Shown: positions 4,892 through 32,000 of the stretch, piece after piece
Layout of the letters: each line of letters starts with the position of its first letter
How positions within the stretch are numbered: position 1 is the first letter of the stretch
Assembly (NCBI RefSeq): GCF_000146505.1
Contig: NC_017448.1
Coordinates: 3,510,001 to 3,542,000 of the forward strand
Direction: 5' to 3'
Length of the DNA stretch: 32,000 nucleotides
Origin: Fibrobacter succinogenes subsp. succinogenes S85
GTDB lineage: Bacteria; Fibrobacterota; Fibrobacteria; Fibrobacterales; Fibrobacteraceae
Made by a program: the position numbers and the translations under genes
The notes under the pieces: generated by a model
What the model was told of the DNA's origin: nothing
Databases searched by the model: none
The model's input: only the letters and a program-made list of their open reading frames with translations

Positions 4892-7800
4892 ATGTTGAAA
4901 AAATATGTGTTAGGGCTGTTTCTAGGCATTACGGCTGCTTTTGCAAGCGGCCAACAAAAAACAATTGCTTTCTTTACTCCGTGGTCGAATACGAATGCTG
5001 TCCTTTATATGGGCGGCGATTCTGTAGCCACCATGACTTCGCTTGAAAATTACTGCGGGTGGTTCAAGGCTACGGTAGATGCCCCTGAAAGCGATTTCAA
5101 GGTTTACTTTAAACAGACCGTCGGATTTAATTATGTCGGCGCCGAAGGCTTGGTCTCGACGGAACCGACTATGGCGACTGAAATTGCGCTTGATTCTGTG
5201 GCGGCCCTTTCGGATACGATTTGGGTTCAAGGCTACAAGACGGATGTGCCCGCGCTATTTTCGAAATATCCTGGCGTTCTTGGCGATTGCCCGCTAAAGA
5301 AAATTCCTGTGACTGTTTACGACTGGCTTCATGGAACTAAGGGCGATGGAGACGGTAGCGGTAAAAATGGCGACCCGGCAAACGGTGTGAGCGCTGATTT
5401 TGGGTCGGGTGGATGCTCTGGCAAATCGAAGGCTGTGACGGGCATGGTCGAATACAATCTCGGTCCAAACGGCGTTCCTGTTCGTGCAAATCCGTTCCCG
5501 GAAAACTGCAAGATTACGGATCATTTGGATAGCTGGTTCTTGCCACAGGTTATCGGCATGGATTCTGCGGGTAACGAGTACACCAATATGACTTGCCGCG
5601 ACCTTTATGTTTCTTTGGACGATGATGGATTTTGGCTTGCAGAAGTGTCGAAAGACCGCATATCGGAAGGCAACGAAAAGAATTCAGATGGCATGTTCCT
5701 ACTGGATGATTTTGAATATCTCGATGATGCAAAGACCGTTCCGAATCCTTATTTTGACCAACTTAAGGGAACAAAAATCGGCAAGCATAATTTTGGCTAT
5801 ACTGCAAAAATTCAGGCGACCTTTGAATATGTTCCAGGGCAGTATTTTGATTTTTATGGAGACGATGACGTTTGGGTGTTTATTGATAATCGATTGGCTG
5901 TAGATATCGGTGGCCAGCACGCCCAAGTGGCGGGTGCCGTGGATCTCGATACGATTGGTCAAAATACTGGGAACAAGCTTGTTCCTGGAAAGACTTATGA
6001 TTTCCACATCTTTTACGTTGAACGCCATACGGGTTCCTCGAATTTCCGCATGCGCACCTCCATTGACTTGCATGTGGATGCGTCGATTTTCTTGACGTCT
6101 GATAATCGCGATGAAGGAAAGCGTTTTGAAATTTGGCAAATCAATAAGAAAAATAAGCTGTCTTGCAATTACGATGCAAATTCAACGGAACTGGATACGA
6201 TTGGAGGCGTCTCTACGTTTACGCTCACCGGCGGAAATCTTGCAGAACCTGAAATTCTTGATGTCGGAACGCATTACGAAGGCATCGTAATTACAAGCGA
6301 TTCAACATTCTACATTGACTCGGCGGCGATTGTGTCGAATGTTGCCCTTGCTCCTGGTCATTACTTCTTGGAAATTACGTTGAAGGCTGATCCCAGCCAA
6401 AAGACTAAAGTTGAAATTACGGTTCCCTCTTATGCGGTGCCAAGCGTTGCTTTTATGAAGACGGATTGGACTATTCTCGGGAAAAATGTTTCTGGCGATA
6501 CGGTGCAAATTGGCGAATGGGCGTATGCGACCTATCAAGTGAATATTGCCTTCTTTGAAGAATGGGCGAAGGTCAACAATTACAATCGAAAGATAAATCT
6601 ATCATTCTCCGATGTGAATATTGATATTTTGGATACTGTGGACGGAAATAAAATCAATGCTGTGAATTTGGATGCAAATGGAAAAGCAACATTCTTTGTC
6701 CGTGCTAATGCGCCTGTGTCGGGCGTGACGCTTACGGCGAAGGGTGCTGCTGCAGGTGTGTCCGTGTGGACGGACCTTGTGTTTGCGGCTCCGCCGGTTC
6801 CCCGTGTGTCAAATGCCATTGCGATTGACCGAAACGGTGATGGTCGTGCCGATAGTTTGTATGTGCATTTTGATAAATCTCTCAAGCAAAAGAGCAAACT
6901 CGATTCTATCCAGTTTACTTTTGGGGAATCGTTTAATACGACCTCCAAGTTTACGATTGTCAATGAAAATGATATTGTAATTACGGCTGAAAACTTGACT
7001 CCGCAAAATTGCTCTGGGGATGTGTGCGGCTTTGGAAGCAAGGTCTTTACAGGGGGCACCTCGGACGTTTATGTCGGAAGTTTAAACAATTGGTTTACCT
7101 ATGAAGACAAAGGAAAGACTGGTCGCTTCTATATGGAAAATGAACCCATTGCTGATGGGGTCGGGCCTGTTATTCTTACGGCTGTAAAATCAAAAAATAA
7201 TAATGGAAATGTAATGCTCTTGCTTACTTTCAGCGAAACCGTGTCCGATGAATCCAAAAAGAATTTTGTACAAATGTTCGATTTCCTCTGTGTACGTTCA
7301 GGAGAAAATCGTACTCCTGAAAATCCGATGCTGCAAGGAGGGGCTGATAAAACCATGTTGCTCATTTACGAGGCGACTGCAAAAGATGCGGTGCTCCCGA
7401 CTAGTGGTGATCGCGTTCGTTTTACCGTTGATGGAATTGTTACGGACCTTGCACAAAATAAGGCCCATAAAGAGAACCCTTGGGTTGTCATAGCCGGGGA
7501 TCAGGAACTTTCTCTTGAAAGTCCCAATGTGGTACTGATTGGCGAAGATCCTTATGATATCATCAAGAAGGATTCCGTTACACAGGCTCTGCTTATTCCT
7601 AACACAGCGCAGAATGCTCAGGAAATAGGGGATTCTCTTGGCGTTCAGGGAAGTCTTGTCGATTTCGATGTCTCGAAAGTTATGATTGAACAGACTCAGA
7701 CTGCAGTGAATCATCTTGATGCGTTTATTGAATCTCGAATTGATAATACGGTCCACTACGACACCACCGTTACAAGCATCAGCGAAGAAGAAGCTCTTGT

Positions 7801-23756: not shown

Positions 23757-24532
23757 TGAGCGGACTGAATTTGACTTTGAAGATTTGGCGTCAGAAGGAT
23801 GCCAAGACCAAGGGACAGTTCGAAACTGTCAAGATCAACGATGTTTCTCCGGACATGTCCTTCTTGGAAATGCTCGACATTGTGAACGAAGAACAGATGA
23901 AGCAGGGCAAGGAAGGCTTCGCTTTCGACCACGACTGCCGCGAAGGTATCTGTGGTATGTGCTCTCTCGTCATCAACGGTATGCCGCACGGTCCTGACCA
24001 TGCAACGACTACCTGCCAGCTTCACATGCGTAAGTTCAAGGATGGCGACACCATCGTGATCGAACCGTGGCGCGCTGCCGCATTCCCGGTTATCCGTGAC
24101 TGCGCTGTCGACCGTACCGCTTTCGACCGCATCATTCAGGCTGGCGGCTTCGTTTCCGTCAACACCGGTGCTGCTCCTGAAGCATCCACGATTCCGGTTC
24201 CGAAGGCCGATGCCGACCGCGCATTCGACGCTGCCGCTTGCATTGGTTGCGGTGCTTGCGTCGCTGCATGTAAGAACGCCTCTGCTATGCTCTTCGTCTC
24301 TGCTAAGGTTTCTCACCTCAGCTTCTTGCCGCAGGGCAAGGTCGAAGCAAAGAAGCGCGTGCTCGCCATGGTCGCTCAGATGGACAAGGAAGGCTTCGGC
24401 AACTGCACGAACCTTTACGAATGCCAGGCCGCATGCCCGAAGGGTATCACCGTGGATTACATCGCCAAGATGAACCGCGAATACCTCGGCGCAACAGTCA
24501 CCTATGCCGAAAAGGTGTACGGAAAGGACTAA
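23756..24532 (+). CDS. sdhB: Succinate dehydrogenase/fumarate reductase iron-sulfur subunit
   Basis: Three Cys clusters are present: [21 protein letters not shown] and CQAACPKGI. There is a 1-nt TAATG overlap with sdhA. Confidence 0.95.
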
Positions 24533-24534
24533 TT

Positions 24535-24583
24535 AGACGAAAGGACGCTTCGCCTTCGGCTCGCTACAGACGAGAGACGAAAG
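24535..24583. repeat. 3-prime intergenic element: AGACGAAAG - GC-rich core - CTACAGACGAGAGACGAAAG
   Basis: Partner of 20278-20320. It lies 2 nt after the sdhB stop. Confidence 0.65.
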
Positions 24584-24648
24584 AAGCGTTACAACGTCAT
24601 TGCGAACCCCGAATAGGGGTGAAGCAATCTCAATTCAGCATTATAAAA

Positions 24649-24675
24649 GGGACCGCAGCGATGCGGCCCTTTTTG
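24649..24675. terminator. Bidirectional rho-independent terminator (ends the sdh operon on + and the island cassette on -)
   Basis: GGG(A)CCGCA / GCGA tetraloop / TGCGGCCC. TTTTT follows on the + strand. AAAA lies immediately upstream, giving TTTTAT on the - strand. A second hairpin, GGGGGA-GGAA-TCCCCC, lies at 24684-24699. Confidence 0.75.
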
Positions 24676-24731
24676 CGTATGGTGGGGGAGGAATCCCCCT
24701 GGCTTTTGGCCTGATAAATCCTTTCCACAAA

Positions 24732-25388
24732 TTATGTGTGATGTTCCTTATCCCAATTGTCAAACCGCAAAAATCGCGGTTCATAGGGAAAATCGCAAAA
24801 CACATCCTTTGGCATAGAACCGTAAACGACTACAATTTGCGGATGCAACACCTTCAGCATTTCTACAACGCCCAAATGCATCAGTCGTTTTTCATCTTGA
24901 GTTTGACAACATCCATAAGTCCCGATTGAAACGATTGAGTTATGCGGAATGCCGATAAAAGCTACTGCTTCCGGTAATTCTACAGTTGTAAATGTCCTTT
25001 CGTCGCCCCATCGCACATTCGGAATCTGATAGACTCCGCTGTGTTGCAGAAAACTTGCGTTGCGCCGAGATATGAATAGGTTTGCAATCTGTGCGCAAAG
25101 AGGAGCTTCTACTAGAATAGAATTATCGGGAGATGTAATTCCCGGATGCTCTAAAAGATCTTTGATATACTTTTCAGGATGGTTGGTGAAATCCTGATAA
25201 TGAGCCTCGTGTTCATAGAAGTGTACGAATCGATCCCTAGCCTTCTGCCGCTTGGAAAAGGGTACAAGTCCTGCGGGCTCGACAATTTGTTCCAATGGCT
25301 CTAATTGCGGAATTTCAAAGATTCCATCGTAAAAAGAGCGTTCCAGCAATTCTGGACGCAATCCGTCGTCAAAGGCGTTTATGCGCAT
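24732..25388 (-). CDS. DUF4417-like protein (function unknown)
   Basis: 218 aa with an AAGAGGA SD. The pattern RFVHFYEHEAHYQDF...ITSPDNSILVEAPLCAQIANLFISRRNASFLQHSGVYQIPNVRWGDERTF...GIPHNSIVSIGTYG matches my memory of the DUF4417 consensus (hFY.dD..F....PDFS......P...Q..N.yR.r..g...Q..G..VIP.v.W). Not verified by search. Confidence 0.45.
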   Translation of the reverse strand: MRINAFDDGLRPELLERSFYDGIFEIPQLEPLEQIVEPAGLVPFSKRQKARDRFVHFYEHEAHYQDFTNHPEKYIKDLLEHPGITSPDNSILVEAPLCAQIANLFISRRNASFLQHSGVYQIPNVRWGDERTFTTVELPEAVAFIGIPHNSIVSIGTYGCCQTQDEKRLMHLGVVEMLKVLHPQIVVVYGSMPKDVFCDFPYEPRFLRFDNWDKEHHT

Positions 25389-25451
25389 ATTTATTCCTCT
25401 TTTGAAGATTTTACTTGTTTTTGTGGAATAGATATGCTAAATTAATACCTA

Positions 25452-25476
25452 CGTTAGTTGTTAACTAGGATTTGCT
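25452..25476 (-). promoter_or_regulatory. Operator-like 25-mer containing the TAGTT-GTT-AACTA inverted repeat, upstream of the DUF4417-like gene
   Basis: CGTTAGTTGTTAACTAGGATTTGCT is 22/25 identical to 26463-26487. It lies 64-88 nt upstream of the ATG at 25388. Confidence 0.4.
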
Positions 25477-25540
25477 TTAGCATATCTGGGAATGGACTTG
25501 AATAAGATTGTTCGCTGCAACTTGTTCGAGTCCTTTCTTT

Positions 25541-25873
25541 TTAACCCATTGCTTGTTCGGCAGATTCAATATCAATCTCAATCGATTTTTTGATATCCTC
25601 CGGCATTTTGTCATGGATTCTGTGTATCGCCTCGATGAATTCCTTGGATTGAGTTTTAGTTGCGATTTCATCAAACATTTCGCTAATCCAGTAGATATCA
25701 TCAGGACTGCATTCGTTTTCAAGGAACGAGAGTCCTTCCTGCAGGTTATCCGTAATCATTGCAAGGATTTTTTCGTGGCATTGTTCAATGCCGTAATCCC
25801 AGTTGTCCATCGTTTCATCCGCGATTCTTTTGCGTTCAACAATGATTTTGTTGAATTCATTCTTGTCTATCAT
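25541..25873 (-). CDS. Small acidic helical protein, candidate cognate immunity/antitoxin for the upstream RNase
   Basis: ATG at 25873 is preceded by AGGAG-taaaaaaa, and the SD overlaps the stop codon of the upstream gene (10-nt gap). It is 110 aa, rich in D/E, with no recognisable motif. The track start at 25927 lies inside the upstream gene. Confidence 0.5.
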   Translation of the reverse strand: MIDKNEFNKIIVERKRIADETMDNWDYGIEQCHEKILAMITDNLQEGLSFLENECSPDDIYWISEMFDEIATKTQSKEFIEAIHRIHDKMPEDIKKSIEIDIESAEQAMG

Positions 25874-25883
25874 TTTTTTACTC

Positions 25884-26351
25884 CTATGGTTGAATTTTGT
25901 CAGGGAACACAGTTCCGATTTGCCCATTTGTTTTGATTACACCTACACGAACGCCCTTGAAAGTCCCGTACATAATCCTTCCATCCGGGAAATTACGGTT
26001 CCTGTGTAACTGGGCTACATGTTCTCCAGCCCGTTTAATAGTTTTTTCACTCCATGACGTAGGAAACCAAGATTGGTTTATCCCCGTACGTTTCGCTCTT
26101 GTCGAATGCAAAGGGATGTTCCCGACACGAACACCATTGGAATACACCTTCACAATATTATATGGAATGCCATATTTATCAAGAAGGTCCATTCCCTTTT
26201 GTCCGTGACCACCACTCATCAGCTTTAATGGGTCGGTTGGTCTTTGCGGCCTTGTGAATTTTCCCTCCGATGAATGAACCAGTGAAAACTGGCTCATGGT
26301 TCTGGCGCTACCTTTCGTATTCATATAGCGCCCTGGTTTACTGGTTCCCAT
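25884..26351 (-). CDS. Stand-alone bacterial EndoU-like ribonuclease toxin domain protein
   Basis: ATG at 26351 follows an AAGGGG SD, whereas the track start at 26378 is TTG with no SD. The pattern SGGHGQ...NGVRVGNIPLHSTRAKRTG...SWFPTSWSEKTIKRAGEHV...GTFKGVRVGVIKTNGQIGTVFP fits the His...His..Lys plus (T/S)xFPxxWS layout I recall for Pfam EndoU_bacteria. No N-terminal delivery or secretion domain is present. Confidence 0.5.
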   Translation of the reverse strand: MGTSKPGRYMNTKGSARTMSQFSLVHSSEGKFTRPQRPTDPLKLMSGGHGQKGMDLLDKYGIPYNIVKVYSNGVRVGNIPLHSTRAKRTGINQSWFPTSWSEKTIKRAGEHVAQLHRNRNFPDGRIMYGTFKGVRVGVIKTNGQIGTVFPDKIQP

Positions 26352-26369
26352 ATTGTACCCCTTTTGCAG

Positions 26370-26397
26370 AATATACAATACGGATTGATATATGCAA
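26370..26397 (-). promoter_or_regulatory. Sigma70-like promoter for the EndoU-like gene (TTGCAT - 16 nt - TATATT)
   Basis: On the minus strand, TTGCAT lies at 26397-26392 and TATATT at 26375-26370, about 18 nt before the ATG. Confidence 0.45.
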
Positions 26398-26462
26398 GAA
26401 TTGTCTTGACATAAAACCTCTTGCCGTATTTCGGCGGATGATGTTGTGCATCAAGACAAAGC

Positions 26463-26487
26463 CGTTAGTTGTTAACAAGAACTTGCT
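26463..26487 (-). promoter_or_regulatory. Second copy of the operator-like 25-mer (TAGTT-GTT-AACAA)
   Basis: CGTTAGTTGTTAACAAGAACTTGCT lies about 66 nt upstream of the -35 box of the EndoU-like gene. Confidence 0.4.
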
Positions 26488-26554
26488 GATGCTGTTTGCT
26501 TGGATGGCTGATGTTCGCTGTACAGCCGTTTATTTAGGGTATAGATAGCTACTA

Positions 26555-27085
26555 TTACACGATCCACCTCCCTTGGATTTTGCCGATTCTTGTTTTTGCG
26601 GCACCATAAGTGACACCGCATTTTTCTGAAATTTGAATGTAGTTCATCCCTTGAATTAGGTCATAATCCATGAGAAATTCTTCGGCAAAAGCATTTGCTT
26701 GCCATTCGGGATCTTCAAATGGTCTAAGCTTTTCCCCAGGAGCCAAACGGCAAAGAGCTACTCGGTTTGGTCCATGCAGAAGAAAATGCCCTATTTCATG
26801 CATAATTGTAAAACGGGCGCGTCCATCTCCGTGGCAAGCCGCAACATAGACATCCTGACGGATGATGATTTTATTGGCTCCTGAAAATGTCACGCCTTCT
26901 TCCGACATTGTGTAGTCGGCGACAATCTCCCATTCAAAATTAGGGAACAGCTTTTCCATAATCCATTCAAAAAACAAACATACAGGGATTTTGTGAATAT
27001 CCTCTAAGCCGCATTTTTTTCGTATGGCCTTGGCCAATTCACGAATTTCCTGCTTGGATATTGGCTTTGCCTTAAAGTTTGCCAT
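26555..27085 (-). CDS. ImmA/IrrE-family (COG2856, M78-like) zinc metallopeptidase
   Basis: It has the HEXXH motif in IMHEIGHFLLH and the downstream EWQANAFAEEFLM motif typical of the family. The AAGGAG SD and a TAATG overlap couple it to the XRE gene. Confidence 0.8.
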   Translation of the reverse strand: MANFKAKPISKQEIRELAKAIRKKCGLEDIHKIPVCLFFEWIMEKLFPNFEWEIVADYTMSEEGVTFSGANKIIIRQDVYVAACHGDGRARFTIMHEIGHFLLHGPNRVALCRLAPGEKLRPFEDPEWQANAFAEEFLMDYDLIQGMNYIQISEKCGVTYGAAKTRIGKIQGRWIV

Positions 27086-27444
27086 TATTTCTTCTCCTTG
27101 TTTAAAATACTTAGGATTCTGCTTATATCACTATCTGGTATAGAGTCCAATTTTCTGGCAAAAGCGATAGCAAGGTCTCTTTGGTTGGCCTGCAGGTCGT
27201 GCAATCCTATTTCGATTTCGTTATTAGAGTCGTAATAGGCGGCTTTCATCTTTTCGTTTTGTTCTTCAGATAGGCCATAGAGGGTCGCTATCTTGGAAAG
27301 CCATCCTTCGGGAATCTTTCTTTTCCCGTTCTCGACTCCAGAAAGGAATGCTGGAGATACGCTTAACTTGTCGGCCATATTAAGCAAAAGTTCTCCTATA
27401 TCCATCCTTAAGTTCCTCAAAAATTTTCCGAAAGATGTGACCAT
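27085..27444 (-). CDS. XRE-family helix-turn-helix transcriptional regulator
   Basis: FGKFLRNLRMDIGELLLNMADKLSVSPAFLSGVENGKRKIP is a canonical HTH_3 layout. An AAGGAGA SD is present. 119 aa. Confidence 0.85.
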   Translation of the reverse strand: MVTSFGKFLRNLRMDIGELLLNMADKLSVSPAFLSGVENGKRKIPEGWLSKIATLYGLSEEQNEKMKAAYYDSNNEIEIGLHDLQANQRDLAIAFARKLDSIPDSDISRILSILNKEKK

Positions 27445-27473
27445 TTTGTGTCTCCTTGAGTGGGTTTGCGAGT

Positions 27474-27502
27474 AATATACATTATTTTGGTTTACAAGTC
27501 AA
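27474..27502 (-). promoter_or_regulatory. Near-consensus sigma70-type promoter of the XRE-ImmA operon (TTGACT - 17 nt - TATATT)
   Basis: On the minus strand, TTGACT lies at 27502-27497 and TATATT at 27479-27474. The SD and the ATG at 27444 follow. Confidence 0.6.
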
Positions 27503-27508
27503 TAGATT

Positions 27509-27537
27509 TAGTTAAAGAAATTAACTTTTTTAGTTAA
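27509..27537. promoter_or_regulatory. Three helically phased half-sites (T)AGTTAA / TTAACT / AGTTAA at an 11-bp pitch: putative XRE operator
   Basis: AGTTAA lies at 27510-27515, TTAACT at 27521-27526 and AGTTAA at 27532-27537. Each adjacent pair forms an inverted repeat with a 5-nt spacer, immediately upstream of the -35 box. Confidence 0.5.
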
Positions 27538-27621
27538 TGCTGTGATTAGGGACATTTTCTCCGTTCTGGTCGAGCGCCATTGGATATTTTTGGAGATTAT
27601 GTTTCGCGTGGGGGTGTGGTT

Positions 27622-27930
27622 TTACGGATTCCAAGCGAATTTGAGAAAAAACATCCGTAATCTGTTGTTGCCGGACTATCAAAGTCCGGCAATTATCTAT
27701 ATTCACAGCATGGCTTTTTAGCTGCATCGGCGGTTGTGTGCCGGTCGGGTAACGGGCTACCAGTTTTTAGAGTTTTTGCTCTTATTCTCATTGATGAAAT
27801 CCGCTAAATTTCAAGTGTACGAGAATAAGGCGAACACTCACGTCCCTATGGGGCGTGGGTCGTTCGTGCTTGTAGTACACAGGGCTTTTAGCGGAGCCTC
27901 ATCAATTGCAAGTCGGATGATTCCACGCCT
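27622..27930 (+). other. Hairpin-dense non-coding segment (candidate structured RNA or regulatory leader) between the XRE gene and mod
   Basis: There are two perfect 8-bp stems: 27622-27629/27653-27660 and 27670-27677/27683-27690. A nested set follows: 27800-27808/27887-27895 (9 bp) encloses 27815-27820/27875-27880 (6 bp), which encloses a 16-bp hairpin at 27831-27866. That hairpin has two G-T pairs that are legal only in a plus-strand transcript. No convincing ORF is present. Confidence 0.35.
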
Positions 27931-28036
27931 TTTTTACATGCTCCTGTCACCCTGGAGCCGAAGGCGATAGGGTCCAGTCCTTCAAGAGGGTAAGGGTTAG
28001 AACTGAACCTTTAACCTTTTTGTACATGAGGCCCCC

Positions 28037-29599
28037 ATGCCCTCGCTGACCTGGATTGGCAAAGACGCTGTTTTGAATCACCACCTGGATGTCCCTTATC
28101 GGGTTCTGGAAAAGAAATACGATTTTGGCGACGGCGAGCCGGGTAACAAGATTATCCACGGCGATAATTTGGAAGCGCTCAAATCTCTGCTCCCTGAATA
28201 CGAAGGTCGCATCAAATGCATCTATATCGATCCACCGTACAATACCGGCAACGAGAACTGGGTCTATAACGACAATGTGAACAGCCCGAAAATCAAGAAG
28301 TGGTTAGGGCAAGTGGTAGGGAAGGAATCCGAGGACTTGACCCGTCACGACAAGTGGCTTTGCATGATGTACCCGCGCCTTAAGTTGTTGCAGAAATTGT
28401 TGAGCAACGACGGGGCGATTTTTATCAGCATCGATGATAACGAACAGGCGAATCTGAAGTTGGTTTGTGATGAGATATTTGGAGCAGGGAATTTTGTTGG
28501 TGATTTTATTTGGGAAAAGAAAAAAGTGGTTCAAAACGATTCAAAATTTTCATCAGTTAATCATGAATATGTTTTGTCATATAGAAAATCAGAACAATTA
28601 CAAGTATTCAATTTATTGCCACGAACAGAAGAAGCAAACGCAAGATATGCTAACCCGGACAATGACCCAAACGGACCTTGGACTAGTGTTGCCTTAACTG
28701 CCAAAAGTGGCTCCGCTGATAACATTTATGATTACACTTTTCCAAATGGAATTTATTGGAAACCGAATGAAGGAGCTTATCCCAGATTAAGTAAGGATTC
28801 ATTAATAAGGGCTTATGAAGAGAATAGACTGTGGTTTGGTAAAGATGGAAAAAATGTTCCTAGATTAAAAAAATACTTATCCGAAGTAAAACAAGGAATG
28901 GTTACAAATTCCATTTTGTATAACGAAATTGTTGGTTCAACGCAATTAGCAAAAGAACAACTAAAACGAACTTTGGGAAAAAATGTTTTTGATACTCCTA
29001 AATCAATCAAATTAATTGAGATGCTTCTTGTTTTAGCCACCGACAAATCCTCCATCATCCTCGATTCCTTCGCTGGTTCCGGCACCACAGCCCATGCTGT
29101 GCTGAATTTGAACAAACAAGATGGCGGCAACCGCAAGTTCATCCTTGTCGAAATGGAAGATTACGCCGAGACAATCACCGCCGAACGCGTCCGTCGAGTC
29201 ATCAATGGCTATGGCGAAGGCAAGAATGCCATTGAAGGCACCGGCGGTTCATTCGCCTACTATGAACTTGGCCCAGAACTTTTGAAAGATGGTTTCATCA
29301 ACGAAAACGTTCCGGAGCAGACCATCCGCGAATACCTCTATTACACCGAAACAAACCATGCATTGCCGCAAAGCAACAACGGGCATCCGGCTCATTTAGG
29401 GAACTTCGATGGCGTCGCCTATTATTTCCTTTACAACAAGGACGAAACAACGACGCTTGATGCGACTTTTCTTGCGTCAATTTCGGAGAAGGCCGACCGC
29501 TATGTCATCTATGCGGACAACTGCATCATGCCGCAGAAATTCCTTTTTGACCACGACATCACCTTCAAGAAAATCCCGCGTGATATCCGGAGGTTCTAA
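28037..29599 (+). CDS. mod: Type III restriction-modification DNA methyltransferase (Mod; beta-class N6-adenine/N4-cytosine MTase)
   Basis: Motif IV is IYIDPPYNTGNENWVYND, and it precedes motif I, LDSFAGSGTTAHAV. A central variable region lies between them. 520 aa, with a 1-nt TAATG overlap with res. Confidence 0.9.
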   Translation: MPSLTWIGKDAVLNHHLDVPYRVLEKKYDFGDGEPGNKIIHGDNLEALKSLLPEYEGRIKCIYIDPPYNTGNENWVYNDNVNSPKIKKWLGQVVGKESEDLTRHDKWLCMMYPRLKLLQKLLSNDGAIFISIDDNEQANLKLVCDEIFGAGNFVGDFIWEKKKVVQNDSKFSSVNHEYVLSYRKSEQLQVFNLLPRTEEANARYANPDNDPNGPWTSVALTAKSGSADNIYDYTFPNGIYWKPNEGAYPRLSKDSLIRAYEENRLWFGKDGKNVPRLKKYLSEVKQGMVTNSILYNEIVGSTQLAKEQLKRTLGKNVFDTPKSIKLIEMLLVLATDKSSIILDSFAGSGTTAHAVLNLNKQDGGNRKFILVEMEDYAETITAERVRRVINGYGEGKNAIEGTGGSFAYYELGPELLKDGFINENVPEQTIREYLYYTETNHALPQSNNGHPAHLGNFDGVAYYFLYNKDETTTLDATFLASISEKADRYVIYADNCIMPQKFLFDHDITFKKIPRDIRRF

Positions 29600-32000
29600 T
29601 GATTCTCAAGCAATACCAGAAAGACATCATCGAAGATTTGACCCGTTATCTGGAAATTCTCCAAAAGACAAAAAATATTTCGGAGAGCTTCAATGAATTC
29701 TGGCGGCTGCACCCGCGGACTCCGCTCACTCCGTTCCCCGGCGAAATCGTGGAACCCTACAAGAACAATGTTGCTGGCGTTCCTCATGTGTGTCTGAAGG
29801 TCCCGACCGCTGGTGGAAAAACATTCATTGCCGCCAATGCGCTCCGACCGATTTTCTCGATATTTCCGCAAGATCACGCAAAGACTGTCGTGTGGCTTGT
29901 TCCGTCCAATTCCATCCTTGAACAGACGATTCGCAACTTTTCAAACCCGGAACACCCATATCGCGAACAGTTGAATGCGGATTTCGGGAATCGCGTGGAA
30001 GTCTATGACAAGACTGCTCTTTTACAGGGTGCGGGATTCAACGCTTCGTCCGTAAAGGAAAACTTGTCCCTTTGCATTCTCAGTTTCGATAGCCTGCGGA
30101 GCCGCAACAAAGACAATCGCAATGCCTACAAGGAAAACGGCAACCTATTGTCTTTTGCGGAATCCGCTGATGAAGAAGTCTCCTTGATGTCGGTTTTCAA
30201 GCAACTTAATCCCGTAATCGTTGTAGATGAAAGCCATAACGCGGAAAGCGAATTGAGTGTCGATATGCTCAAGCAGTTGAACCCGAGTTTTATTCTGGAC
30301 TTGACGGCGACTCCGCGAAAAAACAGCAACATCATCAGCTTTACCAGTGCTTTTGAACTCAAAAAAGAAAGCATGGTCAAGTTGCCCGTGATTGTCTATA
30401 ACCACCAAAGCAAGGACGAAGTCGTAAATTCGGCGCTGGAACTTCGCACCCGCTTGGAGCGAGCCGCTTTTGACGCTCAAAATCAGGGCGGAGCGCCCAT
30501 TCGCCCCATTGTCCTATTCCAAGCGGAGCCCAAGACAAAAGAAGACAACGCCACTTTCGATAAAATCAAAGCGATGCTAATCGAAAAGGGAATCAAGGAA
30601 AGCGAAATTAAGATAAAAACCGCCGATAAAAACGAGTTGGCTGGTTTGGACTTGATGTCGCCGGATTGCGAAGTCCGTTACATCATTACGGTGAACGCTC
30701 TGAAAGAAGGCTGGGATTGCCCTTATGCGTACATCCTTGCTTCGCTTGCCGACAAGAACTCCGCTGTGGATGTGGAACAGATTCTCGGAAGAGTACTGCG
30801 GTTGCCTTATACGCGCAAAAATCCGAACCCGATGTTGAACATGAGTTATGTGCTTACGGCATCGAACAAGTTCTTGGATACCGTGCAGAATGTGGTGGAA
30901 GGTTTGAACCGCGCAGGCTTCAGCGGCAAGGACTACAGAATTGCGGATACGCAGGTGGTCAACGATTTGCCTAGTGAGGCTCCTGTCGCACCGTCGCCAG
31001 TCGATTTGTTGTCGCCGATTTCACCGGAAACTCAAGTTCCTTCGACAAGTGCCTTAGATGAAAACATATCGCCAGCAACAAGCTGGAATCCTGGGGCAAG
31101 TGTTTGTTCTGCAAGCCCTGCCGTGCAAGACATAGAACGCTTGGCAAGGCAAGAGAACGAAACGATGGAAAAGCAAATTCAGGAGAGCAAATCTACTGGA
31201 GCTGCCCCTACACCTGCAGATTTGGAGAAACAAGTGAAAAACGCCCACATCAAGGAAAACTTCATCGAAAGTGCAAGTGGAATTTGCCTGCCTAAATTCT
31301 TTATGAACATGGATGGCATTGAAAACGACTTGTTCGGTCTCTGTGAAATGGAATTTGAAAAGGACATGCTCCTGAAAAAATTCCCGCTTCGCACCTGCGA
31401 TACATCCATCAACTTCGACAACGTCGATGCGGAAATATACAAGGTCGATTTGGATGAAAGTTCCAAGGACAACACGCCGACCTTCTGCAAAGTGGGGAAG
31501 GATGTGCAGACAAGCCTTGCCCAATGGATTTTAAGTATCAAGGATGTTGAAAGTAAACGCAAGAAATGCGCCGAGATGCTAGTGGGGCTTGTCGGGAAAA
31601 TGTATCCCATTCCAGACCAGGAAATCAAGATATACATTGAACGAGTATTGGAATCGTTCGATGATGCTGCATTCAACCACATGCTGAACAACTCCACTCC
31701 ATACGCAGCAAAAATCAGAACAGCCATCCAGAATCATGCCGATACCTATGTGCGTGACGAGTTCCGCCGTGAACTAGATTCGGACAAGATTATCTTGAAG
31801 CCCTCCTATATGTTCAAAAAGCAGAAGCCATATTCTGCGAAAGGCAAGAGCATTGCTAAGAGCCTATACGAACCGGAAGAAGGTTTCAATGAATTCGAAG
31901 CCGAAGTCGTGAACGATATCGCCAATTTGGAAAATGTGGAATTCTGGACCCGCAACAAGGAACGCTCGGATTTCTGCATCAACGGGTTTATCAATCACTA
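29599..32000 (+). CDS. res: Type III restriction enzyme Res subunit (SF2 helicase plus C-terminal nuclease region), 3-prime end outside the window
   Basis: This ORF is not in the supplied track because it has no stop in the window. I translated it by hand and it is open from the ATG at 29599 (GGAGG SD) to 32000. Motifs seen: VPTAGGKT (I), VVDESHN (II), LDLTATP (III), LKEGWDCPYAY and QILGRVLRLP (VI). The sequence near the window end, FWTRNKERSDFCINGFINH, is typical of the segment leading into the nuclease motif. Confidence 0.85.
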   Translation, partial: MILKQYQKDIIEDLTRYLEILQKTKNISESFNEFWRLHPRTPLTPFPGEIVEPYKNNVAGVPHVCLKVPTAGGKTFIAANALRPIFSIFPQDHAKTVVWLVPSNSILEQTIRNFSNPEHPYREQLNADFGNRVEVYDKTALLQGAGFNASSVKENLSLCILSFDSLRSRNKDNRNAYKENGNLLSFAESADEEVSLMSVFKQLNPVIVVDESHNAESELSVDMLKQLNPSFILDLTATPRKNSNIISFTSAFELKKESMVKLPVIVYNHQSKDEVVNSALELRTRLERAAFDAQNQGGAPIRPIVLFQAEPKTKEDNATFDKIKAMLIEKGIKESEIKIKTADKNELAGLDLMSPDCEVRYIITVNALKEGWDCPYAYILASLADKNSAVDVEQILGRVLRLPYTRKNPNPMLNMSYVLTASNKFLDTVQNVVEGLNRAGFSGKDYRIADTQVVNDLPSEAPVAPSPVDLLSPISPETQVPSTSALDENISPATSWNPGASVCSASPAVQDIERLARQENETMEKQIQESKSTGAAPTPADLEKQVKNAHIKENFIESASGICLPKFFMNMDGIENDLFGLCEMEFEKDMLLKKFPLRTCDTSINFDNVDAEIYKVDLDESSKDNTPTFCKVGKDVQTSLAQWILSIKDVESKRKKCAEMLVGLVGKMYPIPDQEIKIYIERVLESFDDAAFNHMLNNSTPYAAKIRTAIQNHADTYVRDEFRRELDSDKIILKPSYMFKKQKPYSAKGKSIAKSLYEPEEGFNEFEAEVVNDIANLENVEFWTRNKERSDFCINGFINH

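Follow-up and report, generated by a model that had tools for sequence, protein, structure and literature searches.

A mobile EndoU RNase, partner and DUF4417 cassette with a candidate antisense small RNA in Fibrobacter succinogenes

A 32,000 nucleotide (nt) stretch of the Fibrobacter succinogenes subsp. succinogenes S85 contig NC_017448.1 (positions 3,510,001 to 3,542,000, termed here the window) carries a compact cassette of five genes on its minus strand. In the direction of transcription these encode an XRE-family helix-turn-helix (HTH) repressor, a metallopeptidase of the M78/COG2856 family, a stand-alone EndoU-family RNase, a small acidic partner protein and a DUF4417 protein. All five open reading frames (ORFs) are found at the positions and on the strand given in an initial annotation of the window. 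Judged from homologous loci in other genomes, the conserved core of the cassette is DUF4417, EndoU, the partner and a predicted small RNA, because the XRE and M78 genes are facultative and are replaced elsewhere. The cassette is interpreted as a regulated intracellular toxin–immunity module that would act in defense or addiction, an interpretation for which the probability is judged to be about evenly balanced.

Conservation and boundaries of the cassette

The 86 related loci compared consist of contigs with three EndoU homologs and 79 loci from species-representative genomes; individual loci are given as L numbers. Counts of each feature include only loci with enough flanking sequence. The partner gene follows the EndoU gene in 83/83 loci. 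A DUF4417 gene is present in 55/56 and is located directly before EndoU in 47 loci and after the partner in 29, i.e., the gene orders are D-E-P or E-P-D. The XRE+M78 pair is found upstream in 32/58 loci (~55%), and in 32/32 loci that have the pair it is co-directional with the other three genes. With all-against-all clustering of neighboring ORFs, only the partner, EndoU, DUF4417, XRE and M78 recur. The five genes are thus a co-conserved block, in which XRE and M78 are facultative members.

EndoU proteins that are at least 58% identical are found across Fibrobacterota, Bacillota, Actinomycetota, Lentisphaerota, Bacteroidota and Chloroflexota. The spread over both diderms and monoderms argues for an intracellular, host-independent action. 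Hosts include Fibrobacter/Hallerella, many Clostridia and Lachnospiraceae, Selenomonadales, Lactobacillus iners, Gardnerella and Arcanobacterium, as well as Victivallales/Lentisphaeria, Bacteroidales and Anaerolineaceae. These are gut, rumen and vaginal bacteria from at least five phyla. The EndoU proteins form 735 clusters at 90% identity, with relatives in 179 species-representative genomes. The cassette is also present in two archaeal-labelled bins, L018 (Methanomethylophilaceae) and L051 (Methanocorpusculum), with EndoU sequences 61–82% identical to bacterial copies; these could be mis-binning or cross-domain transfer.

Genes that flank the cassette are unrelated between loci, with occasional restriction-modification (R-M) genes (MmeI type in 5 loci, Type III in 3), integrases and serine recombinases. 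In Fibrobacter-clade loci that have other flanks (L009-L011), similarity to the window sets in at the first TTAAC (position 27537), which is ~94 nt upstream of the XRE ATG. Similarity among differently flanked loci ends right at the DUF4417 stop codon. From these two limits, the mobile unit is delineated as 24732 to about 27538, and this ~2.8 kb segment is self-contained and horizontally mobile.

The EndoU RNase and its partner

The EndoU gene (25884–26351, minus strand) encodes a putative toxin of 155 amino acids (aa) from an ATG preceded by AAGGGG. The translated sequence matches the Pfam profile EndoU_bacteria (PF14436) with an E value of 6.8e-13 and 49.5 bits, against a cut-off of 25.3, over profile positions 9–128 of 129. 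An AlphaFold2 model has a mean predicted local distance difference test score (pLDDT) of 89.9. When this model was compared with the PDB by Foldseek, the top 20 matches were all coronavirus Nsp15 (NendoU) or XendoU at a probability of 0.8–0.98. It should be noted that the same matches are modest by other scores (E 8e-3 to 0.1, TM about 0.4–0.47). The profile match above the cut-off and the EndoU-family structures agree with the initial assignment of this protein, which on sequence and modeled fold is a member of the EndoU RNase family; RNA cleavage itself is predicted. Profile searches of PDB sequences with EndoU, DUF4417 and the partner gave no match. Residues H26, H49, H82, K87, T141 and T147 are invariant in 45 sequences. 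This His/Lys/Thr set may be compatible with the signature H, H, [SNT], [SNT] given for catalysis by Tox-EndoU (Zhang et al. 2012, PMC3482391), for which the reference residues in XendoU are H162/H178/S229/T278.

When 1.8 billion representative proteins were searched exhaustively and without profiles, EndoU residues ~16–153 were 45–56% identical to the extreme C-termini of proteins of 400–2300 aa. The first 15 residues are common to stand-alone forms (about 155–170 aa) and are missing from the long toxins. No further Pfam domain is present in the 155 aa protein, and the EndoU homologs at all 86 loci have only 150–170 aa. Thus the description of this protein as a toxin warhead devoid of a delivery domain is upheld. 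A promoter of its own had also been ascribed to the EndoU gene, but no consensus promoter was found there. The N-terminal peptide, MGTSKxGRYxNTxGS (residues 1–15, encoded at 26307–26351), does not vary across phyla and is modeled as disordered; it may be a docking or processing motif.

The partner gene (25541–25873, minus strand) encodes 110 aa, a putative immunity protein or antitoxin. Its isoelectric point (pI) of 4.4, in line with the acidic character noted initially, is opposed to the pI of 10.8 of EndoU. The two genes appear translationally coupled: the EndoU stop codon TAG is followed by a gap of 10 nt (gagtaaaaaa) and the ATG of the partner, and an AGGAG sequence overlaps the stop codon, as originally reported. 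No Pfam family was found for the partner. However, the partner is homologous to the ORF that follows an EndoU C-terminal (EndoU-CT) toxin on Moraxella bovis plasmids, both by BLASTP (3e-11) and by hhalign (probability 98%, E 1.6e-13). EndoU is 46% identical to the CT domain of the M. bovis plasmid toxin, which is itself within an array of toxin cassettes. Since the toxin domain and the ORF that follows it are both homologous to the long-toxin cassette, EndoU and its partner are best regarded as a toxin–immunity pair of polymorphic-toxin descent that has lost the delivery region. No signal peptide, trafficking domain or secretion gene was found in or near the cassette, and clustering of neighboring ORFs at the 86 loci showed no full-length parent toxin gene nearby.

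Some loci display tandem, diverged partner paralogs of 42–83% identity, e.g., four copies at 67–83% in L077 and two at 42% in L030. Tandem partner arrays or tandem EndoU–partner pairs are located at L077 8486–9937, L083 8486–9569, L030 8494–9246, L017 7011–8807 and L018 7491–9564.

Candidate antisense small RNA

The intergenic regions between M78 and EndoU and between the partner and DUF4417 are conserved far beyond expectation. Each contains one copy of a 25-mer (25452–25476 and 26463–26487) that had been detected initially and is a real repeat, with 88% identity between copies. The initial annotation had linked this 25-mer to half-sites of the XRE operator. This relation does not hold: the palindromes upstream of XRE (27508–27537, described below) occur only once in the window, even when 1–2 mismatches are allowed, and copies of the XRE operator at EndoU and DUF4417 are ruled out as the meaning of the 25-mer. 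The two 25-mers are better explained as the P1 region at the 5′ end of a predicted, duplicated antisense small-RNA gene.

Copy B of this candidate RNA (25430–25545, plus strand) lies in the partner–DUF4417 interval. An extended -10 promoter, TGCTAAATT, is found at 25435–25443, and the predicted transcript, of the 80–95 nt class, extends from about 25448 to 25542. It displays, in order, a P1 hairpin (CCUACGUUAGUUGUUAACUAGG, which is the first 25-mer), a linker, a 13-bp P2 hairpin and a U-run, and the minimum free energy of the fold is -32 kcal/mol. In the Fibrobacter clade the P2 stem covaries, with 7 compensatory pairs in 6 sequences. Copy A (26459–26536, plus strand), between M78 and EndoU, is a diverged paralog that holds the second 25-mer and has a hairpin GGCTG..CAGCC plus GTTTATTT, which is terminator-like on the plus strand. 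A Fibrobacter-type covariance model, R2, was built only from copy-B-type sequences. It finds two plus-strand copies in the window, at 25445–25545 (a seed sequence, 113 bits) and at 26459–26536 (outside of the seed, E 0.015), and also matches the copy-A position in L001, L002 and L008-L010.

Loci of Firmicutes and Actinobacteria also have the two-hairpin layout, upstream of their first core gene. In L030, a predicted RNA at 7133–7254 (minus strand) has the promoter TTGACA-17-TGcTATAAT, a 12/12 consensus with extended -10, and a 17-bp terminator. A simple scan shows the arrangement of promoter, ~80 nt, long hairpin and U-run in 45/86 loci, including loci without XRE+M78. Despite divergent sequence, the predicted RNAs have a common architecture of a ~10-nt tail, P1, a linker, a P2 terminator of 13–19 bp and a U-run. 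In 33/35 distinct loci the antisense strand forms the more stable P2 stem (mean -20.1 vs -14.1 kcal/mol, Wilcoxon p=3e-7), and there are 88 G-U pairs in antisense P2 stems vs 21 in the sense form. Compensatory changes are present in 9/10 inner P2 pairs, 0/500 shuffles match the observed pairing or covariation, and with slid controls the paired fraction drops from 90% to 35–53%; these P2 statistics come from phylogenetically related sequences and overstate independence. The second hairpin region shows no strand asymmetry (p=0.23). A sense-strand leader or riboswitch was also considered for P2 and is rejected, as the sense hairpin is weaker and has C-A mismatches at positions where the antisense form has G-U pairs.

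A Firmicutes-type model, R1, matches only the expected site per locus in 0.97 Mb and is ~2x stronger on the antisense strand. R1 did not reach the window copies, and its sole Fibrobacter-type match is L031 at E 0.9. Thus the two RNA types are regarded as homologous from their position, their architecture and the shared GATATGCTA/TAGCATATC motif. No Rfam 15 family was matched, either in the window at E values up to 10 or in 9 related loci at gathering thresholds. From these comparisons, the RNA is a candidate new small-RNA family found beside the DUF4417/EndoU/partner trio across phyla.

Cognate and non-cognate combinations were compared to see if the small RNA would pair in trans with the translation start of the first core gene; such pairing is not supported. 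A local complementarity of GCATATCTATTCC with GGAATAAATATGC at the DUF4417 start, with similar cases in L027 and L046, is anecdotal.

Two further sequence features are associated with this region. The promoter spacer and -10 of the RNA (25430–25443) form an inverted repeat with ~25477–25488 inside of the RNA, and there are equivalents in L030, L077 and L062; the sequence differs between clades and the repeat itself is kept. In L027, L030, L049, L061, L062, L068 and L076 a short hairpin abuts the Shine-Dalgarno sequence, ~10–40 nt upstream of the first core gene. These hairpins vary by clade (CCGC-AAGTA-GCGG, CTGTC-..-GACAG, CTTCACC-..-GGTGAAG) and probably represent the 5′-terminal stem-loop of the core-operon mRNA.

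The XRE repressor and M78 peptidase

The XRE gene (27085–27444, minus strand) encodes 119 aa, with the HTH at residues 5–62 followed by a C-terminal half. It matches the Pfam profiles HTH_31 (9e-7) and HTH_3 (8e-5), and the PADLOC capH profile spans its full length (2.9e-6). The M78 gene (26555–27085, minus strand) encodes a putative Zn-metallopeptidase of 176 aa with a HEIGH motif. The Pfam profile Peptidase_M78 matches at 4e-12, and the HExxH motif is kept in 42/42 M78 orthologs at related loci. The PADLOC capP profile matches M78 at 7e-15, with only profile positions 3–117 of 242 matched, and RmrA profiles (best 4e-9) match only about 50–130 residues of the peptidase core. In CapP, the M78 peptidase is joined to a C-terminal GAF domain whose cysteine-switch loop senses single-stranded DNA (ssDNA). 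By its length and profile coverage, the M78 protein of the window is a single-domain enzyme of ImmA size that lacks the GAF/ssDNA-sensing half present in CapP and IrrE. The XRE stop codon overlaps the M78 start (TAATG), as was noted before. This overlap, the HEIGH motif, the C-terminal extension of XRE and the CapH/CapP profile matches together bear out the proposed likeness to ImmR/ImmA.

The XRE promoter, TTGACT-17-TATATT (27502–27474), matches the sigma-70 type well, with a score of 10/12. Directly upstream of it are two overlapping palindromes, TTAAC-N7-GTTAA and AGTTAA-N5-TTAACT (27508–27537), so that the whole control region spans 27474–27537 of the minus strand. The palindromes are conserved in the Fibrobacter clade and are likely the XRE operator, predicted to be autoregulatory.

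Loci without XRE+M78 usually have a different regulator in its place: a fused HTH-M78 protein, a divergent CI-like HTH, a BetR-like HTH or a Fic-wHTH protein. Such swapping of regulators, including the fused XRE-M78, is typical of regulated toxic operons. The HTH-M78 fusion of Lentisphaeria has ~355 aa and is RmrA-like (L052 6010–7077, L059 6037–7092).

The DUF4417 protein

The last gene of the cassette (24732–25388, minus strand) encodes 218 aa and matches Pfam DUF4417 (PF14386) at 9e-37. Thus each of the by-eye domain assignments of the initial annotation, XRE HTH, M78, EndoU and DUF4417, has a matching Pfam profile. Many polar residues are invariant in the DUF4417 family, as in an enzyme, and the protein therefore looks enzyme-like. 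The AlphaFold2 model (pLDDT 88.6) has no significant PDB match, and the weak list consists mostly of TIM-barrel proteins. The best of these is the tRNA-guanine transglycosylase (TGT) 7a3x, with a weak match (probability 0.69, E 0.06, TM 0.39). Matches in BFVD include 7 models of phage queuine tRNA-ribosyltransferases (DpdA-like), also weak (E 0.03–1, TM 0.39–0.49). No sequence-level match corresponds to this TGT/DpdA likeness, and weak Pfam hits of family members are uninformative. A TGT/DpdA-like fold for DUF4417 is thus a lead from modeling, not a result.

DUF4417 is found in 491 phage records, often at the genome end or fused to a ParB-CTPase fold, and without EndoU. In mycobacteriophages it is gene 1 at the genome end and is annotated as a nuclease, e.g., NC_031238.1 475–978.

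The surrounding island

The cassette abuts a Type III R-M system on the plus strand (28037–32000), with mod at 28037–29599 and res from 29596, which runs off the window. PADLOC matches are MTase_III at 1e-206 and REase_III at 9e-71. The initial annotation had described the cassette as lying beside these genes. The neighboring genes are indeed present, but the adjacency is incidental, as a mod homolog is adjacent in only 3/86 loci (L008, L031 and the window type).

The 590-nt spacer between XRE and mod (27445–28036) has no convincing gene; its sole ORF has 65 aa (27530–27727). A strong 11-bp hairpin is found at 27667–27693, and a RAGATH-35 match in the spacer is at noise level (E 3.1). The spacer is kept in L008 and not in other loci. 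On the other side, the window and L008 remain alike for ~85 nt past the DUF4417 stop codon, up to a GC-rich bidirectional terminator (24650–24699), and then diverge (region 24533–24731). This point is probably the edge of a larger low-GC island that also holds the Type III R-M genes. The GC content is 0.41–0.44 over 24500–29000 vs 0.52–0.57 in the adjoining succinate dehydrogenase/fumarate reductase (sdh/frd) operon.

Proposed mechanism and alternative explanations

In the toxin–immunity module proposed here, XRE dimers would bind the palindromes at their own promoter and hold transcription low. The antisense RNA units, one before EndoU and one before DUF4417, would be convergent to transcription from the XRE promoter and could insulate the toxin genes from read-through, either by transcriptional interference or by formation of an RNA duplex. 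A stress or infection signal, possibly DNA damage or ssDNA by analogy with ImmA, IrrE and CapP, would activate the protease. Cleavage of XRE would then permit transcription from the strong XRE promoter through EndoU, the partner and DUF4417. Once the RNase exceeds the immunity protein, or once the latter is lost, growth arrest or death would follow, in the cell itself or in one that has lost the element, and the outcome would be an abortive-infection-type defense or addiction of the island. Each single step is put forward with much less confidence than the general interpretation.

Several observations weigh against this interpretation. The XRE+M78 pair is missing in 26/58 loci. Neither EndoU nor DUF4417 is preceded by a detectable XRE-type operator, so that XRE could control them only by way of read-through from the XRE promoter. 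The GAF/ssDNA-sensing half is missing from the M78 protein, which gives no pointer to its signal. Copy A of the small RNA has no convincing promoter, and in the pairing assay with translation starts the cognate combinations were no better than the non-cognate (median rank 0.33, mean difference -0.8 kcal/mol). Toxin and immunity genes are predicted to be co-transcribed and translationally coupled, so that induction alone need not kill. Diverged immunity arrays and tandem toxin–immunity pairs suit interbacterial or inter-element competition better than simple suicide. In addition, the loci were gathered by EndoU similarity, and conservation is measured from the EndoU side only.

One alternative is a role in competition, whereby EndoU would be an interbacterial or inter-element weapon exported by an unrecognized route, possibly via DUF4417 or the conserved N-terminal 15 residues, and the partner protects kin. 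The identity of the RNase domain with the C-termini of long polymorphic toxins, the homology of the partner with a long-toxin immunity ORF, the immunity arrays and tandem pairs, and the invariant, predicted disordered peptide that the long toxins lack are all consistent with such a weapon. However, the cassette has neither export signals nor secretion genes in its vicinity, no full-length toxin gene is nearby with which it could recombine, and near-identical proteins are found in diderm and monoderm phyla, so that no lineage-specific secretion system can be required. The weapon explanation is considered unlikely. The XRE and M78 proteins could, alternatively, be a CapH/CapP-type regulator of the divergent Type III R-M genes, with the EndoU, partner and DUF4417 genes an unrelated neighboring cassette. 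The location of XRE (27444, minus strand) and mod (28037, plus strand) matches the published divergent geometry of CapH/CapP, the PADLOC matches to capP (7e-15) and capH (3e-6) are in line with it, and the combination of R-M and cassette recurs in L008. But in 32/58 loci, which come from several phyla, XRE+M78 accompanies the EndoU trio, and hardly any of these loci has R-M genes beside it; the cassette boundary is ~94 nt upstream of XRE, with the mod spacer common only to L008; and the palindromes abut the XRE promoter, ~500 nt from mod. Regulation of the R-M genes is accordingly given a low probability, and it is not mutually exclusive with regulation of the trio. The least probable of the explanations is that the block is a remnant lysogeny or immunity region of a prophage or an integrative and conjugative element (ICE), i.e., an XRE repressor and ImmA anti-repressor with moron genes. 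In its favor, prophages and ICEBs1 are under the control of XRE+ImmA pairs, phages often carry DUF4417 (the 491 records above), and integrases or serine recombinases are near a few loci. Nevertheless, no capsid, terminase, integrase or replication gene is conserved beside the cassette at the 86 loci, and the cassette is sharply delimited, by the XRE promoter on one side and the DUF4417 stop codon on the other. The ordinary prophage lysogeny module that the initial annotation had held up as a contrary outcome is thus not what is found. A phage origin of EndoU was also considered and set aside, as there was no match in 50,697 phage genomes.

With respect to the intergenic element, it could be a bidirectional terminator combined with operator palindromes for the regulator instead of an RNA gene. 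P1 and the promoter/internal inverted repeat resemble operator palindromes, AGTTAA and AACTAA are found both in the element and in the XRE upstream region, and the second hairpin region lacks strand asymmetry. On the other hand, the stability and the G-U pairs of P2 are strongly strand-specific, a consensus extended -10 is positioned for exactly this unit in dozens of loci, full XRE palindromes are missing from the element, and the same RNA type is found beside XRE+M78, beside Fic-HTH, or where no regulator ORF matches. A terminator and operator explanation appears improbable. A different possibility, assigned little probability, is an RNA-centered conflict system in which EndoU, a TGT/DpdA-like DUF4417 and the small RNA act together. 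DUF4417 would modify bases of the small RNA or of a tRNA, and thereby mark self or gate the RNase; or else the small RNA would be an antidote or a guide for EndoU. In both variants, protein immunity and the XRE/ImmA switch would be extra safety layers.

Comparison with known systems

If the cassette is the intracellular toxin–immunity module proposed here, then a polymorphic-toxin warhead and its immunity protein have been re-used under transcriptional gating. DUF4417, which is frequent in phages, gains for the first time a tight functional linkage. Although common and mobile, the cassette is missing from defense-system catalogs and the searchable literature, and its 2.8-kb size makes it directly testable for phage defense, addiction and RNA targeting. 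That the combination has no name as a defense system, as suspected initially, is supported: the six-part combination and the obligatory DUF4417 and small RNA were not found in PADLOC-DB v2, Rfam 15 or the searchable literature, and none of the PADLOC models, RmrT included, matched EndoU, the partner or DUF4417.

In CapH/CapP as well as in DdrO/IrrE and in ImmR/ImmA, as in the cassette, an XRE HTH repressor gene is directly before an overlapping HExxH M78/COG2856 gene, and the repressor–protease pair is tied to a toxic or defense-type operon. Among them, the known switches govern immune operons, DNA-damage regulons and mobile elements. The protease of the window differs from CapP in that it has 176 aa, with capP profile positions 118–242 unmatched. 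Where CapH/CapP has been described, the regulator genes are upstream of the operon that they control and face the other way, whereas the pair in the window is co-directional with the trio and divergent only from the incidental Type III R-M genes. Furthermore, XRE+M78 is dispensable in 45% of the cassette loci.

Polymorphic toxins of the EndoU-CT type (CdiA-CT of STECO31 and those of Moraxella bovis plasmids) have the same PF14436 RNase, a homologous immunity family, immunity arrays and an immunity gene immediately downstream of the toxin. The EndoU of the cassette, however, begins at a start codon of its own and lacks any N-terminal region for delivery, repeats or a pre-toxin, and it is linked to DUF4417 and a candidate small-RNA gene, under an HTH regulator, in unrelated chromosomal contexts. 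The Rosmerta (RmrT/RmrA) and Xre-COG2856 toxin–antitoxin (TA) systems are similar in that a toxin gene is found with HTH and M78 functions, and RmrA (about 370–400 aa) is an HTH-M78 fusion, as is the 355 aa protein of the Lentisphaerota loci. They differ in that the cassette toxin has a separate, dedicated protein antidote and that the RmrA match covers only the peptidase core.

The candidate RNA is similar to those of type I TA systems and to the CopA/RNAI countertranscripts, i.e., short, strongly promoted RNAs with two hairpins and an intrinsic terminator, located opposite a toxin operon. In contrast to these, no overlap with a toxin coding region or ribosome-binding site is predicted, no cognate start-region pairing was detected, and the cassette also has a protein antidote. 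Phage ParB-CTPase-DUF4417 fusions and stand-alone phage DUF4417 proteins have the same PF14386 domain; the cassette copy, however, stands alone and is linked to an RNase toxin, whereas the phage copies are not linked to EndoU. Thus the combination appears to be undescribed, and its ingredients are each of a known kind: a repressor/protease switch, a toxin–immunity pair and a countertranscript.

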